From the IMG/VR virus record IMGVR_UViG_3300037189_030782: a DNA stretch of 64,000 nucleotides; one strand, given 5' to 3'. Position numbers and translations under genes: made by a program. Source of the DNA: a virus. Its lineage: Duplodnaviria > Caudoviricetes. Positions 7,588-19,812 of this stretch are shown one piece after another. Positions within the stretch are counted from its first letter, which is position 1. Each line of letters begins with the position of its first letter. Below the pieces are notes generated by a model, which saw only the letters and a list, made by a program, of their open reading frames with translations, searched no databases and had not been told where the DNA came from.

Positions 7588-7854
7588 ATGTTCGCCAAAT
7601 TCGACCTTGTACTCCTTAAAACGACGAAGAACGTTAAATACATCAGCGTTGATCCAGCTGAAATAAGCCCAAAGGGCTACTGGACAGTAAGTAATATCGT
7701 TGAAGATGACTTGCTAATAACAAAGGGTATGGCTGTGGTAAGGATACCGCAGGCTGATGTATTGAAGGCTGTAGACATTAATCAGTCGATGCATAAGATC
7801 CACGGGCTACTTGGGAGGTTATCAGAATATGGCGAAGGCAGAGAAGACAGCTAA
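7588..7854 (+). CDS. Hypothetical protein (88 aa)
   Basis: ATG start; overlaps recA start. Confidence 0.7.
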   Translation: MFAKFDLVLLKTTKNVKYISVDPAEISPKGYWTVSNIVEDDLLITKGMAVVRIPQADVLKAVDINQSMHKIHGLLGRLSEYGEGREDS

Positions 7855-8941
7855 ACCTAAAAACCTAGATGAGCTGTTTGCGAGAATCGATAAATCTATC
7901 GGAAGTGGGTCGATCAAAAGAGGCAAGAATGCTATCAGTCCGGTGCAGGTTTTCAGCTCTGGGGTAGCTAGCATTGATTTTGCAATTGGCTGCGGTGGCA
8001 TTCCGATCGGTAGGATTATTGAGATCTGGGGTCCAGAGAGCAGTGGTAAAACTACGACCTGCCTGCAATTGGCTAAAGCATGCCAAAAGCATTATTTTGC
8101 TACCAAGAAAGCCTATGGATCTGTGGTTTACATAGACGTCGAACATTCTTTAGATCGCTCGTGGGCTATCAAGATTGGCGTTGATGTCGATGTTATGGCG
8201 ATTAGTCAGCCAGATTCAGGTGAAGATGCATTTAGCATAATAGATCAATGTATAGATTCAGGTTTAGTCGATTTGATTATAGTCGACTCGGTTGCAGCGC
8301 TGGTGCCTCAGAAGGTGTTAGATGGAGATATAGGTGATCAACAGATGGCAGCATTAGCGCAATTGATGAGCAAGGGTCTCAGCAAGATAAAGGGGAAATG
8401 TAATAACACAGGTACAACGATTATCTTCGTGAATCAGATCCGTGAGAAAGTGGGCCAAATGTTTGGCAATCCCGAGACAACGCCAGGCGGCAAAGCGCTC
8501 AAGTTCTATGCATCAGTGAGGGCTGAAGTAAAGCGAAAGGAAGCTGTCAAAGTAGGACAAGAAATAGTAGGCAATGTTGCACATCTTACTATGCGTAAAA
8601 ACAAAGTGGCGCCACCATTTGAAGTAGCTGAGTATGATATTTGTTTCGGTCGGAAGGAACGACCAGTTCACGGTATCGATTGGGTCACTAGTTTAGTGCG
8701 AACTGCAGAAAAGAAGGGCGTATTGATCACTAAAGGCTCGCATTATAAGTTCGATAATCAGACTATAGGCAATGGCGAGGCTGCAGTGGTTAAAGCATTC
8801 AGAGATGATGATAAGCTAATAGAACGTGTTAGAGCTAAGTTGTATGAATTGATCGTCGATGGAGGCATAGAGCCAACTGAAGATACAGAGGAAGATCGAT
8901 TGGAAGACGGGGGTTTTGTCGATGAGCAATCCGCTGTATGA
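7829..8941 (+). CDS. recA: RecA recombinase
   Basis: GRIIEIWGPESSGKTT, SQPDSGE, IIVDSVAALVP, FVNQIREKVG, NPETTPGGKALKFYASVR, KNKVAPPF; start moved to the ATG after GGGAGG. Confidence 0.97.
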   Translation: MAKAEKTAKPKNLDELFARIDKSIGSGSIKRGKNAISPVQVFSSGVASIDFAIGCGGIPIGRIIEIWGPESSGKTTTCLQLAKACQKHYFATKKAYGSVVYIDVEHSLDRSWAIKIGVDVDVMAISQPDSGEDAFSIIDQCIDSGLVDLIIVDSVAALVPQKVLDGDIGDQQMAALAQLMSKGLSKIKGKCNNTGTTIIFVNQIREKVGQMFGNPETTPGGKALKFYASVRAEVKRKEAVKVGQEIVGNVAHLTMRKNKVAPPFEVAEYDICFGRKERPVHGIDWVTSLVRTAEKKGVLITKGSHYKFDNQTIGNGEAAVVKAFRDDDKLIERVRAKLYELIVDGGIEPTEDTEEDRLEDGGFVDEQSAV

Positions 8942-9245
8942 AGTCGGCCAGACAGTATACCACAGGTCTAGTGCTACTTCTGGTTTCCTAGATCCTATCA
9001 TTATCAGTGGAGTGCGATCTTCTGGTATCAATTGGATCTATAAGATCAATAGCACTCGCACAGCCAGTCAATCATTGGGGACTTATTCGGACAAAAACAG
9101 CTTAATTACTGGCGACGTGTTATGGTTTAGAGAGGATGAATTCATATTATATTGCGAAGCGTTGACACTGGCCAAGCAATTTCTGCAGAAGCAGCTATTA
9201 AGCATCGACCATGCGCTGGCGGCGCAGTGTGGAGAGACATTCTAA
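8922..9245 (+). CDS. Hypothetical protein
   Basis: ATG at 8922; abuts helicase start. Confidence 0.65.
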   Translation: MSNPLYEVGQTVYHRSSATSGFLDPIIISGVRSSGINWIYKINSTRTASQSLGTYSDKNSLITGDVLWFREDEFILYCEALTLAKQFLQKQLLSIDHALAAQCGETF

Positions 9246-10583
9246 ATGGAAGACAGTATTCAGGAAATTCTGGACGACAAGACGGAGATTAATCCTGAAT
9301 TTACTCAGTATTACGAAGAAGGCATCATCAGTCTTAGTCTTGATTATCCAGAATTTTTCGGCACTATTGCAAGATTTCTTAAGCCTGATATGTTTGCCCG
9401 CAGCGAATGTCAGATAGTGGTAGCGCTAATACTGAATTACTATGAAAAATATAATACTGTGCCGACGAGGAGGTTAGTGCGTGAGTTAGCGTATGAGCAG
9501 GTGTCTGTTGATGACAACTTTGAGCCTATCTTAGCGCTTATAGAGCGGGAATCTGACCACCGAGAAATCCCTTTTCTTAAAGAAAAAATGCTGTCGTGGG
9601 CCAGGAAGAAAGCCTTTTCCATGATCTACAGCCCTGAAGCGATCCAGTGCTTTGAAGATGGAGACTATGATGCATTGGAAAAGATAGTAGACGAAGCGCA
9701 TAAGATAACTGATGTGGGCGAAGGTGGGATGTTTTTGTTAGAGAACGTGGACCTATTATTCGAGGAATCTGCCAACCTTCATGTTACAACTGGTTTCAAG
9801 CAGTTAGATAAGTGCTTGAATGATGGTGGTCCATCGCCAAAAGAAGTAGTCTGCTATTTGGCGCCCACGAATGTAGGCAAAAGTATCGTGCTGTGCCAGA
9901 CGGCCATTCATAGCCTTGAGGCTGCTTCTGTGGACGGCACTATTGGCCAGAATGTTTTATTCGTTTCCTTTGAGCTAGATATTAAAAAGACTGCAGCACG
10001 TATGCTTTCGTCAATGTCACAAGTACCAATTAGTCAAATCAAGAATCATAAAGAACGTTGTGTCAATAAAGTTGATACAGTGAAGAATTACTTTAAGAAG
10101 GACGTGGCTATATTTGAATATGCTCCGGATGAGCATAGTGTAGACACCATCTATACCTTAATAGATAATCTTAAGAGGACTAAAAGCTTTAAGCCCGATA
10201 TTGTCATTTTAGATTATATGGATCTCATGGTCAGTCGTCACAAGGCCTATAATAAAGATGATTATGTGCGTCAAAAGCATGTGGCTACTGAAATTCGTGC
10301 TTTAGCTAAGAACACTAATACTGTGGTTTTTACAGCTACTCAGACAAATCGGGCAGGTGCGACGGATAGCGCTGAGAATATTGACATGACAAAGGCGGCA
10401 GATAGCTTTGCTAAACAATTTGCGCTTGACTACGTAATTAGTTTGAACCAATCTTATCAGGATCGAGTAGCTACTCCACCGCGACTTAGGATGTTCATTG
10501 CCAAAAATCGGAACGGTGAGCGTAACAAAACGATTGATTGTGAGATTTTGTACGACCTAATGAGAGTGAAGGAATCTTTATGA
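9246..10583 (+). CDS. Replicative DNA helicase (DnaB / T4 gp41-like)
   Basis: Walker A LAPTNVGKS, Walker B VILDYMDL, ATQTNR, IAKNRNG. Confidence 0.9.
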   Translation: MEDSIQEILDDKTEINPEFTQYYEEGIISLSLDYPEFFGTIARFLKPDMFARSECQIVVALILNYYEKYNTVPTRRLVRELAYEQVSVDDNFEPILALIERESDHREIPFLKEKMLSWARKKAFSMIYSPEAIQCFEDGDYDALEKIVDEAHKITDVGEGGMFLLENVDLLFEESANLHVTTGFKQLDKCLNDGGPSPKEVVCYLAPTNVGKSIVLCQTAIHSLEAASVDGTIGQNVLFVSFELDIKKTAARMLSSMSQVPISQIKNHKERCVNKVDTVKNYFKKDVAIFEYAPDEHSVDTIYTLIDNLKRTKSFKPDIVILDYMDLMVSRHKAYNKDDYVRQKHVATEIRALAKNTNTVVFTATQTNRAGATDSAENIDMTKAADSFAKQFALDYVISLNQSYQDRVATPPRLRMFIAKNRNGERNKTIDCEILYDLMRVKESL

Positions 10584-10765: not shown

Positions 10766-11184
10766 TGTCTATTCCAAAATCGCTTAAATTACAGAGTGAA
10801 GAAGTAGCGTCTGCGCCGGAGCAGATCGATAGCAATGGGCCGCTTAAAAATTTCTCTACTTGCGACACTAAGCCAGTGAAGTGCTGTAGCCCAGATGACA
10901 GAGCCGAGAAAGTATCGAATTTGCTTAAATGGAAGCCGTTAAACGGTTTGGTCATAGTTAAGTGTGAACCGGTAGAAGAATCTATCATCATCACCAATGT
11001 TAACAATGCACCTGCTTTTAAACTCGAAGGCGTAGTGTTGAGTATAGCTAGTGATGTGTTGAATGTAGAGCCAGGTGAATATGTTAAATTTGGCAAGTCT
11101 GGAATAGTGTCAGACTCTGTAGATCCGACAGATTCGTCAGTCATTTTGCTTAATCATAAAAGCATCTTGTGCAGCAGGGTATAA
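10765..11184 (+). CDS. groES: GroES/Cpn10-like co-chaperonin with N-terminal extension
   Basis: WKPLNGLVIVK...EGVVLSI...VEPGEYVKF...ILLNHKSIL follows the Cpn10 pattern. Confidence 0.7.
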   Translation: MSIPKSLKLQSEEVASAPEQIDSNGPLKNFSTCDTKPVKCCSPDDRAEKVSNLLKWKPLNGLVIVKCEPVEESIIITNVNNAPAFKLEGVVLSIASDVLNVEPGEYVKFGKSGIVSDSVDPTDSSVILLNHKSILCSRV

Positions 11185-11573
11185 TGAATTACATATACAT
11201 ATGCCTGGATTGTGAGCAGAAGGCGATCCAGGCAGGGATTGGCGAAAAATCAGAATCATATCCAGAATTAGTGTTGTATGAGACGAGTCATCCGATGGTG
11301 CCGTCAGATCAAGAATTGCTTGATGCGGTTGTGTGTCCACGCTGTGGTTCGACCAAAGGTGAAAAATCTTTCCACGACTACAATATACAGTGCTATATCC
11401 GAGGCAACGGCTTCTTAGATAGAGCTGGAACTAGGAGAGATATGGACATTCACACAATCACCAAGAACGACCCATTTGCTGAGCATCGCGTGTCAGGGGA
11501 AGTAGACCAAGTGGTGTCTGATATGCGTAAAGCTGATAAGCATAATCCTAAACCAATTCATTTCGTAGTTTAG
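11184..11573 (+). CDS. FmdB-like zinc-ribbon protein
   Basis: YIYICLDC and VCPRCGS Cys pairs; ATG overlaps previous TAA. Confidence 0.65.
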   Translation: MNYIYICLDCEQKAIQAGIGEKSESYPELVLYETSHPMVPSDQELLDAVVCPRCGSTKGEKSFHDYNIQCYIRGNGFLDRAGTRRDMDIHTITKNDPFAEHRVSGEVDQVVSDMRKADKHNPKPIHFVV

Positions 11574-11588
11574 TGTATTGATGGCGGC

Positions 11589-12758
11589 ATGGAATCTATT
11601 TTCGTTCATGCCGCCTACAATCGCAGTGGTAGGCCTGAGTTCGTAGAGATCAGCACCAAAGCTGTGATCAAAAGGATAGGTCTTTTCTTAGCAGGATCCA
11701 AAGCGAAATTAAAAGAAGTATTTGACAAGATCGATAAGTTAAAGGGTTTTATCGATTCAGCTTTAGCTAAAAACATCCGGGTCGGTTATGATGATGTAAG
11801 GACGGCTAGGCTGTTCCAGATTTCCAATGTACAAATGTGTTATTACTTCGAAGGTGGCTGTAAGCCTGATGGTGACGCTGATTTTAACAGATACAGGCAT
11901 TTAATGGCTAGGTGTATCAATGCCTATGAGACCATAAATCAACGTGGTATATTTATTAATCATAAGCGTATGTCGCCGGTTTTTTCTTTAGAGACTTTTA
12001 CGAGCCGCACTAAATGCTCTGTGTTCGACCTTCAGAATTATCCGCATCACGATTGTGTATCACATGATAGGAATGACGAATCATCTGTCTATTTGCAGTT
12101 AGACTGGATTTCAGCTGATGTGCGCATGGCTGGATTACTGTCCGGAGACGAAGGGCTTATAAATTGCTTTTCGGATTCTGACCCATACCAGTATATGGCA
12201 GATAGAGCTAATGAATTCGATGAAGTGTTAACCAGAGAACAATGTAAAATTAGGCTTTTAAAATCTATCAATAGTTTAAACGGGCATGACGTAATTGTGA
12301 AGTCATGCTTTCCTGGGTTATCAAACTGGATTTTGGATGTGAGTCACAGATTGATGTTACCCGACAGTGTGTTTTACACGATTTTAGGTCGGGCTTATAA
12401 GCAGATAGCTGATCGATCCAAGAACGCTATTATGAATGCAATGCTGCAGGGTAGTGTAGCTCATGGCATGCACAATGTAATAGCGAAGGTACAGCATGAT
12501 TTCCCGACTTATTTCATCTGTGACATGCATGATTCTGTCGTGTTAAGTGTTCCTAATCATGTAGGGGTGTTGAATGAAGTGATAGATAAAGTGGCAAGAA
12601 TAATGGTAAACCCGTTTAATGGTATTTTACCAGATGATCCATCATTTCCTGTCAGAGTCAATGTGGGCAAGAAGTGGAAAAAATGGAAGCCGTATAAGAT
12701 CATAAGGGGATATGCAGATGATTTCGCGCAGGATCCAGATGAAGCGCCAGAAGCGTAA
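11589..12758 (+). CDS. Family A DNA polymerase, minimal divergent polymerase domain
   Basis: TSRT...DLQNYP, motif A LDWISADVRMAGLLSGD, motif B REQCK, NAMLQGSVA, motif C DMHDSVV, VNVGKKW. Confidence 0.8.
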   Translation: MESIFVHAAYNRSGRPEFVEISTKAVIKRIGLFLAGSKAKLKEVFDKIDKLKGFIDSALAKNIRVGYDDVRTARLFQISNVQMCYYFEGGCKPDGDADFNRYRHLMARCINAYETINQRGIFINHKRMSPVFSLETFTSRTKCSVFDLQNYPHHDCVSHDRNDESSVYLQLDWISADVRMAGLLSGDEGLINCFSDSDPYQYMADRANEFDEVLTREQCKIRLLKSINSLNGHDVIVKSCFPGLSNWILDVSHRLMLPDSVFYTILGRAYKQIADRSKNAIMNAMLQGSVAHGMHNVIAKVQHDFPTYFICDMHDSVVLSVPNHVGVLNEVIDKVARIMVNPFNGILPDDPSFPVRVNVGKKWKKWKPYKIIRGYADDFAQDPDEAPEA

Positions 12759-12885
12759 ACTGTTGCAGAAGGCGAGGAAGGCGTCCGGAGTCAGTAAGAA
12801 GACTTTTGGATCCAATAAGCCTATTCCAGCCTCAGACTTTAATCGAGTGGCTTTTAAGGCCAAAGAAGACGCAGGAGAGGAATAA
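12712..12885 (+). CDS. Small very basic protein (57 aa), absent from the ORF track
   Basis: MQMISRRIQMKRQKRKLLQKARKASGVSKKTFGSNKPIPASDFNRVAFKAKEDAGEE; its TAA overlaps the next ATG. Confidence 0.6.
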   Translation: MQMISRRIQMKRQKRKLLQKARKASGVSKKTFGSNKPIPASDFNRVAFKAKEDAGEE

Positions 12886-13394
12886 TGGCAGACGGACAAG
12901 CGGAATGGTTCATTGACAATGTGCCTCCAGAGATTCTCGAAAGCACATTGTGTAGATTTAAGATAGGCTTCGTAGACGACAATAGCAAAGCTAAGCATTT
13001 GCATTCGGTCGACATTCCGACTTTCGTAGAGATTGATGTTGATAATATTGAACGACACTTGCGTGACACGCCAGCTCAGTATGCGTTCATATCGGAAGTT
13101 TATGCAGAAGCCAAAAAGCAATTATCTGTCATCGAACGTAGTATTAAACTACGTAGGAGCCAGATTTTTAAAGAATGTTACGAGAAGGGAGGTTCAGAAA
13201 AGGTAAGATTAACTGTGGAGCAGATAAAAGCGATCGTCGAATTAGACGAGGAAGTCACTCGGCTTGAAGATTTAGGCTTCAATGCTGATTCACGGGTAAG
13301 CAAGCTATTCGGCTTGTTAAAATCTGTGGAATTAAAAAACAATAACATTGCCCAATTAGCTAAGATGAAAGTCCAAGAGCGCTTCAACACTTAA
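12885..13394 (+). CDS. UvsY-like recombination mediator
   Basis: Coiled-coil pattern (PAQYAFISEVYAEAK...LFGLLKSVELKNNNI) and position directly before the SSB. Confidence 0.65.
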   Translation: MADGQAEWFIDNVPPEILESTLCRFKIGFVDDNSKAKHLHSVDIPTFVEIDVDNIERHLRDTPAQYAFISEVYAEAKKQLSVIERSIKLRRSQIFKECYEKGGSEKVRLTVEQIKAIVELDEEVTRLEDLGFNADSRVSKLFGLLKSVELKNNNIAQLAKMKVQERFNT

Positions 13395-13403
13395 AAGGAG
13401 ACT

Positions 13404-14393
13404 ATGATGAGCTACGATATAAACGATATTCGCAAAAAGCTGCAATCAGCTGGCGACGGAAAGAGGCAGGACCCTGATGAGTTTCGCCCAGAGAAGGTAA
13501 AGAATCCTGGCGACAATTTTAAATACAGGTTCTATATTTTGCCACCTGTAGGAGCAGGTCAGATTATCAAAGGTGGACAAGCACCTAAATCAATGGACCA
13601 GTTCTTTGTGAAGCACGGCAATCACTGGATCGAGAATCGACCTCATCCTTGCCCGCGAGTCTGGGATAATTCGCATTGCGATGTATGTGATTTCGGCTTT
13701 GCGCTATTAAAAGATTGCCATAAGGACGATAAGACTAAGAGGACTCAAATAGTTAAGGACTGGATGCCTAACCAGAACTATATGGTTAACATCTTTTTCC
13801 CTAACGTGAAGCAGAATCCTGAGGCACTACGTAATACGGTTAAGTGGTATAATGCCTCGAAAACGTGTTTCGAAATTTGGACCAAGTGCCTGATGAGTGA
13901 CAACGCAGGAGATCCAGATGAGCCATTGGCCCATGGGATTTTCTTCGATGAGTATAAATCTTGGCTATTCGAACTCGACATCACCGAGCAGGGTCGCCAG
14001 AATAGCTATAAAACCAGTAGATTTTTAGCGAGCGGAGGAGTACCAATTCCGATTGCTAAAAACGCAGACGGTTCAGCTAATGAAGCAGCCATCAAGGGCA
14101 TCTTGAAGTTACGCCACGACCTGCATTCTAAGGTAGAGACGCCTGATCCAAGCAAGATCAAGCAATTGGCAGATAAAATCATCAAAGGCGACGATAGCCT
14201 TGATGAACGTAATAACAAAGTAGGCTTCCATGATGAGGAAGAGGAGCAGCCGAAGCCCACACCGAAGTCTAAGGCTCCTGTCAATGATGACGAGGAGTTA
14301 CCACCGATTGCGGAGACAAAGAAATCAAAAGCTCCTGTCACCACAAACGATGAAGATGATTCGCTTGATTCGTTATTAGCTACGCTTGACTAG
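13404..14393 (+). CDS. Single-stranded DNA-binding protein (T4 gp32-like)
   Basis: YRFYILPP, HGNH, CPR...CDVC zinc ligands, acidic tail ending EDDSLDSLLATLD. Confidence 0.85.
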   Translation: MMSYDINDIRKKLQSAGDGKRQDPDEFRPEKVKNPGDNFKYRFYILPPVGAGQIIKGGQAPKSMDQFFVKHGNHWIENRPHPCPRVWDNSHCDVCDFGFALLKDCHKDDKTKRTQIVKDWMPNQNYMVNIFFPNVKQNPEALRNTVKWYNASKTCFEIWTKCLMSDNAGDPDEPLAHGIFFDEYKSWLFELDITEQGRQNSYKTSRFLASGGVPIPIAKNADGSANEAAIKGILKLRHDLHSKVETPDPSKIKQLADKIIKGDDSLDERNNKVGFHDEEEEQPKPTPKSKAPVNDDEELPPIAETKKSKAPVTTNDEDDSLDSLLATLD

Positions 14394-14403
14394 TAAGATT
14401 GTG

Positions 14404-14431
14404 CAATGGCCCTGGTATCCCGGGGCCATTG
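14404..14431 (+). terminator. Strong hairpin after the SSB gene (terminator or mRNA stabiliser)
   Basis: CAATGGCCCTGG-tatc-CCGGGGCCATTG, 12-bp stem with one GU pair; weak U tract. Confidence 0.6.
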
Positions 14432-14448
14432 TCGTATTTAGAGTAACC

Positions 14449-15288
14449 ATGTACAAACACGCTCTTATCGATGGCAAAAACCTGCTATACCGCTGCTTAT
14501 ATGCTAACGCAGATAACGAAATAGGCATGATCGATAAAGCAGTACACATGTTCGTGACACATCTCATAGAATATAAGAAGACTGCAGAATCCAATCATGT
14601 CCACGTGTTCTGGGATGAAGACCGCAATAAGGTATGGAGGCGTTATCTGTACCCTGGATATAAAGACCGTGATGATTCAGATTATGTAAATGGTTTTCGC
14701 AGTAGTCTGCAACGATGCATCGACATTCTTAGAAAAGTACTTACGAAATTGCCAGTTAGACAATATTGGGCAGAGAGGCAGGAAGCTGATGATTTGATTT
14801 TTGCTGCATCAATTATCCTAGAGCCGGATCCTGTTGTTATATTTAGCACAGATGGAGATATGACGCAGATTTCATTTAAGTACAAGCATGTTAAGATTTA
14901 TCATCACAAGAAAGGTATGCTTGCCACTCCAAAAGCCAGCCCCATATTGGTCAAGTGTTTAATGGGAGATAGTAGTGACAGCATCAATGGATATAAAGGC
15001 ATTGGTCCTGTGAAAGCCGAGAAGCTTGTGTTAGAGGATGCAATTGGTGGTTTCCTAGCTAAAGCGGGCAATGAGCAATTCGAATTTAATAGAAAACTAA
15101 TCGATTTAAGCCTGAATCCTGAAATTGTAAAAAATAAAATCTACGTGGCCAATGTACTACTTGAGCCAGCGGCCACGAACATTTCTGAATTTAATGCTGA
15201 GCTCATCAAGTATAAACTCAGCACCATGTATCAAAATTCAGCATTAATAAAGCGAGAATTCATTAACCTTCCGACGCAATTGTCTTAG
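14449..15288 (+). CDS. 5'-3' exonuclease / RNase H (T4 rnh / FEN-like)
   Basis: LIDGKNLLYR, EADDLI, STDGDMTQ, LMGDSSDSINGYKGIGPVKA (H3TH motif). Confidence 0.92.
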   Translation: MYKHALIDGKNLLYRCLYANADNEIGMIDKAVHMFVTHLIEYKKTAESNHVHVFWDEDRNKVWRRYLYPGYKDRDDSDYVNGFRSSLQRCIDILRKVLTKLPVRQYWAERQEADDLIFAASIILEPDPVVIFSTDGDMTQISFKYKHVKIYHHKKGMLATPKASPILVKCLMGDSSDSINGYKGIGPVKAEKLVLEDAIGGFLAKAGNEQFEFNRKLIDLSLNPEIVKNKIYVANVLLEPAATNISEFNAELIKYKLSTMYQNSALIKREFINLPTQLS

Positions 15289-15781
15289 TATGTGGCGTTG
15301 ATTTGATGTCGGTAAACGTGTGTATTGCGGAGCGTGGTACGATTTTGTCAGTATGTCCGGTTCTTGTGTCTTTGAACATTAGAGCGCAGATGTTTGCGTC
15401 ATGGCTTAGCATCAAGCCATCTGATGACGTCCATACGAACTGACTTAACTCTGGACCGATTAGGTTCTTTATACCTAGCTCTTCCCAGTATTCTTTGTAT
15501 ATGATACGGCCATGTTGGTAGATGATATCTTTTTCGAGTACTAGTCGTTCAAATTTCGCATATTTTTCGTTCTTTAATTCTTTCTTTTCGAGAGTTACCA
15601 CTCGCAGATTCCATTGATTAAGTACAATCACTTGGCCGTCGGCCATGAATGCAAAGGTCATCTCTTTGGCAATCATTGGTATGTTGTAGATGTCGTAGTC
15701 TTGTCGTTCTAGGATTTCTATGTTGCGAAACGACTGCCCAGATGATAAGCTAACGTGATCTGCGATGATCATTTGGATCAA
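15263..15781 (-). CDS. Hypothetical protein
   Basis: 172-aa ORF with protein-like composition; convergent with the exonuclease. Confidence 0.65.
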   Translation of the reverse strand: MIQMIIADHVSLSSGQSFRNIEILERQDYDIYNIPMIAKEMTFAFMADGQVIVLNQWNLRVVTLEKKELKNEKYAKFERLVLEKDIIYQHGRIIYKEYWEELGIKNLIGPELSQFVWTSSDGLMLSHDANICALMFKDTRTGHTDKIVPRSAIHTFTDIKSTPHTKTIASEG

Positions 15782-18202: not shown

Positions 18203-19210
18203 TTAATCCCACTTAGCACTTGAACATTTCGTGCAGATGTCGTTGAAGGCTTGGTCGATCATGCTAGCGTGTTGATCTGAGCCCCAGAAATCACGAAGGG
18301 AATGTGTTGACAAATCGCCGATCTCATGCGACATTGAATAATCATTGCAGCATAGGAATACTTTCCCTACAGCATTGACATGTATCCAGCTGAAAGGTCT
18401 GCCTTTGTCACCCATGCCGTTTGTACATCCCGTGACTCTGGTTTTGCCTTGTCGTGCTTTGTCGATTAATTTGGTGTTAGTTAACACGTTCAATGGCATC
18501 AGGCCAGCTCGATCACTCAAAGATGGTTGCATATATATTGGTATCCATGGAAAGTATTTTTCTCCTAGCTGTTTGTTCTGTTGCAGTGTGCCTGTATCTG
18601 ACAGATCGAATGGAGGCGCTGCTGGCCCCAGTGTGCCGACATGGTTTGCGAAATCAGTGTTCACACCATTTACTTGTATTGTGATCCTTTGTGTTTCCAT
18701 CAATGGTTTTAATGTTCGCACCGCATAATTGATGTTTTCTAACAGTAAGTCGAATTTATCTTCGTGAAACCCTGTAAATGCTGACCATTCAGATCTCTTG
18801 AAGGAAGGAATGTTTAGGCAGATGCCAGCGACATGTGTCGAGTATTGCAGAATAGTGTCAACGCGATCTTTGGTTAGAGTCGTGCCGTTGCTTAGGATCA
18901 TATGATGTAGATCGTACTTCACTGCCAGCTGGCATAATTCTTCGAAATGCTTGTATAATAGCACTTCATTGTAGTGCGCTGTGTAAAAATATCGAAATGC
19001 TGGGCTAACCAGTCCAGATCTCTCAGACACTAAATTCTGCAGGATCTTCTCTAGCAACTCCGGCGACATCTGTTTTTTGCCGGATTCTGGATTGCCTTCG
19101 TATCTGACTGGGCAAAACCAGCATTTGGCATTGCAATAGCCAAATGGGTCTATTTGCGCTGCCGATATTTTTGTTTCTCTGAGTGTTGATTTTATGTCGT
19201 CTAGCGTCAT
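18203..19210 (-). CDS. Radical SAM protein with SPASM/twitch domain
   Basis: CNAKCWFC (CxxxCxxC), YNEVLL, ILSNG, C-terminal C...GKVFLCCND...IGDL...CTKC; ATG overlaps upstream TAA. Confidence 0.9.
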   Translation of the reverse strand: MTLDDIKSTLRETKISAAQIDPFGYCNAKCWFCPVRYEGNPESGKKQMSPELLEKILQNLVSERSGLVSPAFRYFYTAHYNEVLLYKHFEELCQLAVKYDLHHMILSNGTTLTKDRVDTILQYSTHVAGICLNIPSFKRSEWSAFTGFHEDKFDLLLENINYAVRTLKPLMETQRITIQVNGVNTDFANHVGTLGPAAPPFDLSDTGTLQQNKQLGEKYFPWIPIYMQPSLSDRAGLMPLNVLTNTKLIDKARQGKTRVTGCTNGMGDKGRPFSWIHVNAVGKVFLCCNDYSMSHEIGDLSTHSLRDFWGSDQHASMIDQAFNDICTKCSSAKWD

Positions 19211-19812
19211 TACAGTCCCCAAGTTGGTGTTTTGCGCCCTTGCCAATTTACGAACGGTGGACCTAAATGTTCTACAGATGAGTTCTGCAGCAGCACATAG
19301 TTTCCTTTCCACAAAGATCTGAAGCCTATGTCGCAATATCCGCAGTCCATAGACCAATGATCATATATATAGTGTTTTTGGTAGTAGAGCTGGAAATAGC
19401 CGTGGCCATGGTGATAATATTTATATGAGCGATCGGATGTATAGTCTCTATATGTAGGATAGTTCAATCTAGTCACGCCGTACAATTTAGTGTTATCATT
19501 TACTTCCTCTGCATCTAGATAGATGATGCAGTCACTGTCATGGATGAGCATCCAATTGTCACTGTGGTTGGTATGTGCCATGATCTGCATTTGATGTATG
19601 ATGCCTGACTTATTAAATGTAGCACCGTCAGCCTTTACTGCATTATCGAAAAAGATCACTGTTGCGTCGTGTTGATTAGCGAGTTCTATCGTAGCTGTGT
19701 CTTTTGAGGTCGTGCCAATATAATATCTGTCAAATAGACTTCTGTTGTGTTTTATAGTGCAAGCTAGATAATCGCTGTAGTCTATTGATATAGTTAAGCC
19801 AATTGTTTTCAT
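19210..19812 (-). CDS. Glycosyltransferase-like protein (GT-A fold)
   Basis: FNKSG, LIHDSDC (DxD), GYFQL, DIGF, VEHLG motifs. Confidence 0.6.
   Translation of the reverse strand: MKTIGLTISIDYSDYLACTIKHNRSLFDRYYIGTTSKDTATIELANQHDATVIFFDNAVKADGATFNKSGIIHQMQIMAHTNHSDNWMLIHDSDCIIYLDAEEVNDNTKLYGVTRLNYPTYRDYTSDRSYKYYHHGHGYFQLYYQKHYIYDHWSMDCGYCDIGFRSLWKGNYVLLQNSSVEHLGPPFVNWQGRKTPTWGL

Follow-up and report, generated by a model that had tools for sequence, protein, structure and literature searches.

Several family-A DNA polymerases (PolA) that depart from the architecture of bacterial DNA polymerase I (Pol I) are known from phages and mobile elements, and they provide the closest points of comparison for the mini-PolA considered here, a protein of 389 amino acids (aa) encoded in a 64,000-nucleotide stretch of viral DNA (Duplodnaviria; Caudoviricetes; IMG/VR record IMGVR_UViG_3300037189_030782), hereafter called the window. 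The first of them, divPolA1, is a divergent PolA of phages that keeps the palm residues, has a truncated thumb and a dead exonuclease, and stands in a conserved replication context (Yutin et al. 2024, Virol J, PMC11348598). It was reported from 14 phages of 155-190 kb around the Flavobacterium phage vB_FspM_immuto, which possess an extra regular polymerase of family A, B, or C (PMC11348598). In the CcPol-MP or PolA-SSB (SSB, single-strand DNA-binding protein) primases, which belong to SCCmec and further mobile elements of the Bacillota, a PolA whose exonuclease domain is partial and whose thumb is shortened shares one operon with a small partner and a helicase (Bebel 2020, PMC7581432; PMC10061031), the partner providing the DNA binding that is missing in the truncated polymerase (PMC7581432; PMC10061031). 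Besides, the virioplankton contains PolAs with a leucine at the position of E. coli F762, the Leu762 PolAs (Schmidt 2014; Nasko 2018, PMC6302109; Keown 2022, PMC9069017). The synthesised enzymes of all three 762 types measure 564-760 aa, and the Leu762 contigs carry mostly SNF2 or RecB/D-type helicases and none of the gp4 type (Keown 2022, PMC9069017). Finally, Czernecki et al. 2023 (PMC10201439) distinguish 19 PolA subfamilies and report the S-SBP1-type split between exonuclease and polymerase as well as the exonuclease-truncated CCPol, none being described as thumbless. In the literature searched, no mention was found of a thumbless polymerase or of the mini-PolA gene set in jumbo phages.

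11589..12758, + strand: mini family-A DNA polymerase gene, 389 aa (open reading frame (ORF), profile, AlphaFold 2 model, and VIA-align).

This gene encodes an intact family-A polymerase, predicted from its conserved residues to be catalytically competent, from which the 5′ nuclease, the entire thumb, over half of the 3′-5′ exonuclease domain, and some of the fingers have been lost. Its parts follow one another as an exonuclease remnant, a palm helix, a hairpin replacing the thumb, and the palm with shortened fingers. The match of the window protein to PF00476 (DNA_pol_A) covers the C-terminal third only and scores 30.6 bits against a cut-off of 34.3, which relatives of the protein exceed. The PHROGs annotation is DNA polymerase, and a single-sequence search of the PDB sequences yields at best an E-value of ~0.1, to Taq Pol I, in an alignment that pairs TSR with TGR, LDWISADVR with LDYSQIELR, and HDS with HDE. 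A 100% identical protein is encoded in an IMG/VR phage record, and an initial word-index search returned six relatives of 365-413 aa. The profile made from these six, scored against all 1.84 billion representatives, retrieved 179 clusters at E <= 1e-30; relaxing the threshold to 1e-10 raised the count to 210, and to 1e-3, to 1634. Among the best 150 matches, almost all are 365-430 aa long and aligned end to end, and no longer fused form is present. In the family alignment of 127 members (A2), from which all the residue frequencies given below are drawn, the median length is 387 aa (range 365-436). Relatives are encoded on 94 IMG/VR stretches, and the mini-PolA frames contain no internal stops. 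Since its length is conserved across the family, the shortness of mini-PolA is an inherited trait rather than the sign of a broken gene.

When compared with solved structures, the family profile retrieves Taq (1.5e-18), Klenow (4e-15), and Bst first, and then Pol nu and Pol theta; judging from these profile matches, mini-PolA derives from a bacterial-type Pol I. A tblastn search of 50,697 GenBank phage records with the window protein and two other members detected no member of the family, the weak matches being to ordinary PolAs only; no member was found either in a scan of 185,579 species genomes, and the 16 family proteins that were checked have no NCBI source and no informative name. The mini-PolA family has thus far been found only in uncultured, mostly huge phages. 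As a side observation, the members of the clade to which the window protein belongs end in an acidic C-terminal tail, DDFAQDPDEAPEA (12720-12758), which more distant members do not possess. Acidic tails in T7 and T4 mediate replisome protein contacts.

The AlphaFold model computed with the 127 sequences is one compact, confident unit, with a pLDDT (predicted local distance difference test) score of 91.5 and a predicted template modelling (pTM) score of 0.88 (pLDDT 68 with six sequences), and Foldseek and VIA-align both group it with Pol I-type enzymes. By VIA-align, the Z-score reaches 24.0 to M. smegmatis Pol1 and ranges from 22 to 24, with 328-352 residues aligned, across Pol1, KlenTaq, Bst, and Klenow. 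On KlenTaq, residues 1-368 of the model fall on Taq 302-832 (Z 23-24, 328 residues aligned) and, on Klenow, residues 1-367 fall on 349-928 (Z 22.4, 352 aligned). The N-terminal part and the site of the thumb are reduced to the two following elements.

11589..11858, + strand: remnant of the 3′-5′ exonuclease fold, residues 1 to ~90 (model strands and helix; VIA-align).
11946..11990, + strand: short beta-hairpin GIFINHKRMSPVFSL, residues 120-134, at the site of the thumb, which takes ~100 aa in Pol I (hhalign and model strands).

The first of these is regarded as an exonuclease-fold remnant because residue 1 of the model aligns by VIA-align with Klenow 349, Taq 302, and Bst 313, i.e., with the first strands of the exonuclease domains, vestigial or not. 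In the model it is made of strands 3-10, 16-22, and 27-31, a helix at 41-60, a strand at 64-67, and further short strands. The column frequencies of the 127 sequences reveal no conserved acidic triad in this remnant, where P16 alone is nearly invariant; as no exonuclease site is left, the enzyme would therefore be unable to proofread. After a linker, the model continues with a helix (101-119) and three strands (121-123, 126-128, and 131-133), which lead to the TGR-type motif. hhalign places residue 127 on E. coli R654, beyond the thumb, and GIFIN (120-124) stands immediately before it, so that no room remains for a thumb of ~100 aa; in addition, no long helix pair able to form one (helices H and I) is present in the model. 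According to the predicted fold, the thumb is entirely lost. In the most economical view, GIFIN would equate with the GVKID strand of E. coli, although a forced hhalign into the N-terminal 125 residues gives a zero-confidence alignment and hence no sequence support for this equation; for helix 101-119 as well, a Pol I counterpart can be proposed by inference only. Finally, ~17 residues following the O-helix, in the O1/O2 region, are deleted (hhalign). With no thumb, a weak grip on the duplex and a low processivity are to be expected, unless both are provided by another protein. In Klenow, truncation of the thumb (a tip deletion, Minnick 1996, as cited in PMC10061031) is summarised as having lowered processivity but not catalysis.

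The catalytic motifs, in contrast to these deletions, are kept, and their residues were equated with those of E. coli Pol I by hhalign of the family profile (98% probability).

12000..12014, + strand: TSRTK, residues 138-142, equivalent of the TGR motif (TGRLS), with R140=R668 as primer-terminus contact.
12087..12125, + strand: motif A strand, residues 167-179 (LQLDWISADVR), with D172 as catalytic aspartate and D177 at the position of the steric-gate E710.
12234..12275, + strand: motif B or O-helix, residues 216-229, REQCKIRLLKSINS (E. coli alignment and family frequencies).
12513..12551, + strand: motif C hairpin, residues 309-321, with H314-D315-S316 (alignment to H881-D882-E883).

In motif A, LDWISADVR aligns with ADYSQIELR of E. 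coli Pol I, the equivalences there being D172=D705, D177=E710, and R179=R712. In motif B they are R216=R754, K220=K758, L224=F762, N228=Y766, and S229=G767, and further on Q287=Q849, H314=H881, D315=D882, and S316=E883. Eight residues (R140, D172, W173, D198, Y200, K220, G288, and D315) are invariant in the 127 members, while R216 (125/127), N283, Q287, and H314 (119/127) are nearly so. At TSRTK, the family consensus reads S/T-G-R-S-K. Position 177 is D in 126 of the 127 members, and position 316 is S in 114. Position 224 is more variable (L 97, F 15, I 7, M 4, N 4), and position 228 is divided between Y (68) and N (59); in other words, the aromatic residue at 762 is usually absent from the family, and Y766 is retained by half of its members. 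On a quick maximum-likelihood tree, N228 is found mainly in one large clade that includes the window (7 changes), and position 224 undergoes ~19 changes. Because conservation extends to the residues that bind the primer terminus, the triphosphate, and both metals, polymerase activity is to be expected from mini-PolA.

A first, sequence-only reading of the window had already pointed to a 389-aa ORF in which both catalytic aspartates are kept, and the alignment bears this out. It was also right, as regards the window protein, that no aromatic residue occupies position 762 and that YG is missing (L224, N228, and S229), and its proposal that the residues setting nucleotide selection are altered agrees with the changes F762 to L, Y766 to N, E710 to D, and E883 to S. 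Its description of the enzyme as lacking the exonuclease holds as far as the catalytic acids are concerned, but overlooked the remnant of the fold in residues 1 to ~90; similarly, the loss that it attributed to most of the thumb is real but, by hhalign and the model, affects the thumb as a whole. As for the low fidelity it suggested, lower fidelity, together with low processivity, is a reasonable inference from the lost proofreading and thumb and, by analogy, from the work on Klenow mutants.

With respect to bacterial Pol I (Klenow, KlenTaq, and Bst), which is its nearest solved family by profile, mini-PolA thus shares the palm and fingers fold (Z 22-24) and the equivalents of D705, D882, R668, R754, K758, N845, Q849, and H881, and resembles Taq and Bst in having an inactive exonuclease-like N-terminal part. 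It is, however, ~200 residues shorter than a Klenow-type fragment, with no thumb, ~90 aa of exonuclease fold, and O1/O2 deleted, and differs in the substitutions of F762 by L, Y766 by N (Y in 54% of the family), G767 by S, E710 by D, and E883 by S. A further difference is that, in the phages with mini-PolA, the 5′ nuclease is a separate gene and a Zn-ribbon gene is coupled to that of the polymerase.

11169..11573, + strand: Zn-ribbon protein, 134 aa, candidate partner subunit (FmdB-type CxxC...CPxC ribbon, conserved C-terminal half).

Synteny was evaluated in a sample of 80 IMG/VR loci with a relative of mini-PolA, many of them on contigs of 230-408 kb. The Zn-ribbon gene directly precedes that of mini-PolA in 74 of these loci, at a spacing of mostly -4 to ~+60 nucleotides, with a gap of a few bases or an overlap of 1 or 4 bases in most of them. 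The encoded proteins measure 110-185 aa and have four invariant cysteines (C12, C15, C56, and C59), a variable insert in the ribbon, a core in which G...D-P-[YF]...R is invariant, and a tail that closes with K-x-K-[HY]-[FY]. Their C-terminal half reads YIRGxGYLDKxGxxRDMxLHxL...DPYAxxRxPGEVD and is followed by the basic tail. PF09723 (Zn_ribbon_8, FmdB type) matches 36 of 45 members, no PHROG family corresponds to the protein, and a look-up in the ESM Atlas gave sub-threshold leads only. A weak similarity (E 0.013) of the C-terminal half to the YB-1 cold-shock domain, in its RNP1 region, is a lead and not a finding. The Zn-ribbon protein is itself a conserved family, previously undescribed, and the tight coupling of the two genes makes it the obvious partner candidate. 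It would bind mini-PolA and supply the DNA contact, or the replisome tether, that is missing with the thumb.

The two genes lie within a module whose order in the 80 loci is, on one strand and in nearly all of them, UvsX, orf109, DnaB, Zn-ribbon, mini-PolA, UvsY, gp32, and flap endonuclease (FEN). In the window, small ORFs are present between the DnaB and Zn-ribbon genes, and the other members and borders of the module are as follows, it being kept in mind that many of the genes missing from the 80-locus counts fall at contig ends.

7543..7569, + strand: terminator-like hairpin just before the module (consensus scan only).
7811..8941, + strand: UvsX-like recombinase, first gene of the module (phrog_97, 8e-82; 67/80 loci).
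8916-9245: 109-aa ORF, overlapping the UvsX end and matched by neither Pfam nor PHROGs (57/80 loci).
9246..10583, + strand: DnaB-like replicative helicase (PF03796, 4e-19; phrog_19, 1e-72; 76/80 loci).
12885..13394, + strand: UvsY-like recombination mediator, a weak call (phrog_231, 1.9e-4; phrog_1069, 2.4e-7; 71/80 loci).
13404..14393, + strand: gp32-like SSB (PF08804, 1.5e-5, just under the cut-off; phrog_1192; 79/80 loci).
14386..15288, + strand: FEN, i.e., flap endonuclease or 5′-3′ exonuclease (PF02739, 1.3e-20; phrog_107, 2.4e-28; 65/80 loci).
15321..15341, + strand: terminator-like hairpin just after the FEN gene (consensus scan only).

The two hairpins are pattern matches, and the number of such sites in the region does not exceed shuffle expectation. 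The position of the 109-aa protein would suit a loader of the helicase or an accessory protein of recombination. The FEN gene, three genes downstream of that of mini-PolA, is the separately encoded counterpart of the 5′ nuclease domain of Pol I. The window belongs to an uncultured phage whose nearest record is a 75-kb IMG/VR fragment that is 21% complete. Outside the module, the opposite strand (18203-19357, -) carries a gene for a radical SAM / SPASM-domain protein shortly after the PhoH and dUTPase genes. Between ~46000 and 64000, the G+C content drops from ~0.44 to ~0.35, the GC skew flips its sign, and gene orientation is mixed.

This organisation recalls that of the divPolA1 phages, since both polymerases have a reduced thumb, an inactive exonuclease, and a conserved palm, and both stand in a module with an SSB, a recombinase, a FEN, and DnaB. 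The losses of mini-PolA nevertheless exceed those of divPolA1, since its thumb is absent and its exonuclease reduced to a remnant. Gene 1 of immuto (divPolA1) encodes 441 aa, ~170 of which precede the palm; behind it come two unknown genes and then those for SSB, recombinase, FEN, and DnaB. The gene order of the divPolA1 module is thus different, and it has no Zn-ribbon gene alongside, immuto genes 2 and 3 not being relatives of the Zn-ribbon family. Phage size differs as well (155-190 kb as opposed to 270-408 kb for the largest mini-PolA contigs). In hhalign, the mini-PolA profile (A2) matches the divPolA1 profile (A4) at 82% (E 1e-5), which is no better than A4 against Klenow (81%), while A2 against E. 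coli Pol I reaches 98%; besides, no immuto phage was retrieved by tblastn with three members of the mini-PolA family. The likeness is therefore one of analogous architecture and context, and the two are not demonstrably of the same lineage, a judgement that covers the immuto-type lineage and not the second representative, CAB4155247.

Regarding CcPol-MP, a truncated PolA, a small partner, and a helicase are likewise found together, DnaB, Zn-ribbon, and mini-PolA being co-oriented in 74 of the 80 loci. However, the partner of mini-PolA is an upstream Zn ribbon whereas that of CcPol is a downstream protein with an oligonucleotide/oligosaccharide-binding (OB) fold, the helicase is here of the DnaB type, and the huge phages that host mini-PolA also carry a TOPRIM primase, so that the conventional primase is not replaced. 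With the Leu762 PolAs, mini-PolA shares the leucine at the F762 position, but this position (224) varies within its family between L, F, I, M, and N. Finally, as opposed to the S-SBP1-type split, the neighbours of mini-PolA are the Zn-ribbon and UvsY-like genes, and no PolA-type exonuclease gene was detected in eight related records.

Since the window and its nearest record are both fragments, the second polymerase of this phage has to be deduced from relatives. Five were searched, four of which are complete genomes (364-408 kb), along with wider sets of eight (four complete) and ten records (G001-G010). In the five relatives, a DnaE-type Pol III alpha (PF07733) is encoded 11-22 kb away; it was also found in three of the five further records, which makes eight of ten, including the four complete genomes. 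As an aside on this polymerase, it is encoded in G005, G006, G009, and G010 (e.g., G006:C1:213455-215980) by two adjacent frames of ~480 and ~910 aa, with the break at position 98/99 of PF07733; this division could reflect an intein, an inserted element, or a splitting of the gene. No family B polymerase, and no PolA frame besides mini-PolA, was found in the five relatives. Each of them encodes one TOPRIM protein of 334-421 aa, with matches to a phage DNA primase family (phrog_47, 5e-33 and 2e-35), ~55-80 kb from DnaB; the relatives show neither the DnaG N-domain (PF08275) nor the DnaG zinc ribbon (PF01807). In the eight related records, four complete and four partial, no gene for a PolA-type exonuclease (PF01612) was detected, and DnaQ-type exonucleases are present in three, far from the module. 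A match to PF00709 (PurA/PurZ family) occurs in all ten records, as two separate genes in G002 and G005.

On balance, it appears probable that mini-PolA acts as the phage's counterpart of Pol I, working distributively to fill gaps and in recombination synthesis, with the Zn-ribbon protein as partner and with bulk replication entrusted to DnaE. It would carry out short, distributive, non-proofread synthesis, by which the gaps left by primers would be filled behind FEN on the lagging strand and/or the recombination intermediates of UvsX, UvsY, and gp32 would be extended, while the bulk of the genome would be replicated by the DnaE-type polymerase seen in complete relatives. Bacterial DnaE-based replication needs Pol I and a 5′ nuclease for primer removal. 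With DnaB, a TOPRIM primase, and a DnaE-type polymerase in the relatives, the simplest reading is that these phages share out the work as bacteria do, and the presence of DnaE in these relatives makes an auxiliary role of mini-PolA the most likely one.

Several observations weigh against this assignment. It is mini-PolA, and not DnaE, that adjoins the helicase and the SSB, and a similar context was read by Yutin et al. as a direct role of divPolA1 in replication (PMC11348598). DnaE was found neither in the window nor in its 75-kb nearest record, both being fragments, and the relatives that supply the DnaE argument have a mini-PolA only 28-37% identical. In addition, no beta-clamp (PF02767) was detected in the eight relatives, all of which have a DnaE-type polymerase; it may be too divergent to be detected or borrowed from the host. 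Concerning the partner, its interaction with mini-PolA is deduced from gene coupling, and three loci with available upstream sequence have no Zn-ribbon gene at that place.

A bolder version of the partnership, which we hold to be possible though rather unlikely, is that of a polymerase obligately made of two subunits, the thumbless PolA and the Zn-ribbon protein, the latter binding zinc and nucleic acid in place of the thumb and perhaps adding a primase-like ability or a tuning to DNA possibly substituted with 2-aminoadenine (Z). If true, such a replacement of the thumb by a separate subunit would be a novel solution to the holding of DNA by a right-hand polymerase.

It is unlikely that mini-PolA is instead the main replicase, with the Zn-ribbon protein, DnaB, and gp32 giving it processivity as thioredoxin and gp4 do for T7 gp5, and with DnaE-like genes that are dispensable or serve otherwise. 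The place of its gene between helicase and SSB in a strictly conserved replication module would fit such a function, as would the lack of DnaE in the window and in the 75-kb record, the lack of a clamp for DnaE in the relatives, and the replication role argued for divPolA1 from a similar context (Yutin 2024, PMC11348598). However, replicating 270-408 kb with neither proofreading nor thumb would impose a heavy mutational and processivity burden, a DnaE-type polymerase is retained by the four complete relatives, 11-22 kb away, and positions 224 and 228 vary freely in the family, unlike in a high-fidelity replicase.

Lower still stands the idea of a two-protein primase of the CcPol-MP (PolA-SSB) type, in which the Zn-ribbon partner would hold the single-stranded template for de novo initiation by the truncated polymerase beside the helicase. 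The ingredients of CcPol-MP are indeed present, namely a truncated exonuclease, a reduced thumb, a small partner gene, and a helicase alongside (PMC7581432, PMC10061031), and both the weak resemblance of the C-terminal half of the partner to a cold-shock domain and the distance of ~55-80 kb that separates the TOPRIM primase from DnaB in five relatives could be taken in the same sense. Nevertheless, all five relatives searched, four of them complete, encode that conventional primase, the partner is a Zn ribbon and not a demonstrated OB fold, the primer-terminus contacts R140, N283, Q287, and H314 are fully conserved, and no specific sequence relation to CcPol was found.

Just as improbable is a polymerase devoted to special substrates, whether Z nucleotides supplied by a PurZ-like enzyme (DpoZ-like), ribonucleotides, or damaged or modified templates (translesion). 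This idea draws on the pocket changes at E710 (to D), F762 (to L), Y766 (to N), G767 (to S), and E883 (to S), on the PurA/PurZ-like gene of all ten related records, and on the HDS of motif C, which is also the motif C of single-subunit RNA polymerases. In the work on phiVC8 DpoZ, the selectivity for Z over A reportedly depends on exonuclease-coupled backtracking, whereas mini-PolA has only a ~90-aa remnant without the conserved acids. DpoZ and T7 are moreover absent from the best 60 solved profile matches, in which bacterial Pol I and then Pol nu/theta are nearest, so that a DpoZ-like identity is unsupported. In addition, half of the family keeps Y at position 228 and 15 of 127 members have F at 224, which means that the changes are not a fixed family signature, and the co-occurrence of the PurA/PurZ-like gene among the relatives is explained by shared descent rather than by a functional link.

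Lastly, although the short length and the Pfam score below the family cut-off could have suggested a frameshifted or assembly-truncated PolA, or a polymerase half split from its exonuclease and thumb, as the sequence-only reading had also considered, this is barely credible, since length and architecture are conserved in 127 relatives and 80 loci with no internal stops, which excludes a frameshift or assembly gap as the cause, and since the eight related records contain no PF01612 gene, the five relatives one PolA frame each, and the best 150 matches no fused form, the model itself being compact.

In conclusion, mini-PolA is a more extreme and widespread variant of the recently noticed thumb-reduced auxiliary phage PolAs, accompanied by a Zn-ribbon partner gene that had not been described before. 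Its family lies near the smallest natural Pol I-type enzyme that retains every catalytic residue and, by combining such a minimal size with a full catalytic set, shows which parts of the right hand are dispensable. A 45-kDa polymerase with no exonuclease and with altered residues for sugar and base selection may also have practical use as an enzyme scaffold. The strict pairing with the Zn-ribbon gene makes it possible to test whether a separate subunit has taken over from a polymerase subdomain. More broadly, these data indicate that widespread uncultured huge phages carry a bacterial-style set made of a DnaE-type replicase, DnaB, a TOPRIM primase, FEN, and a Pol I equivalent.

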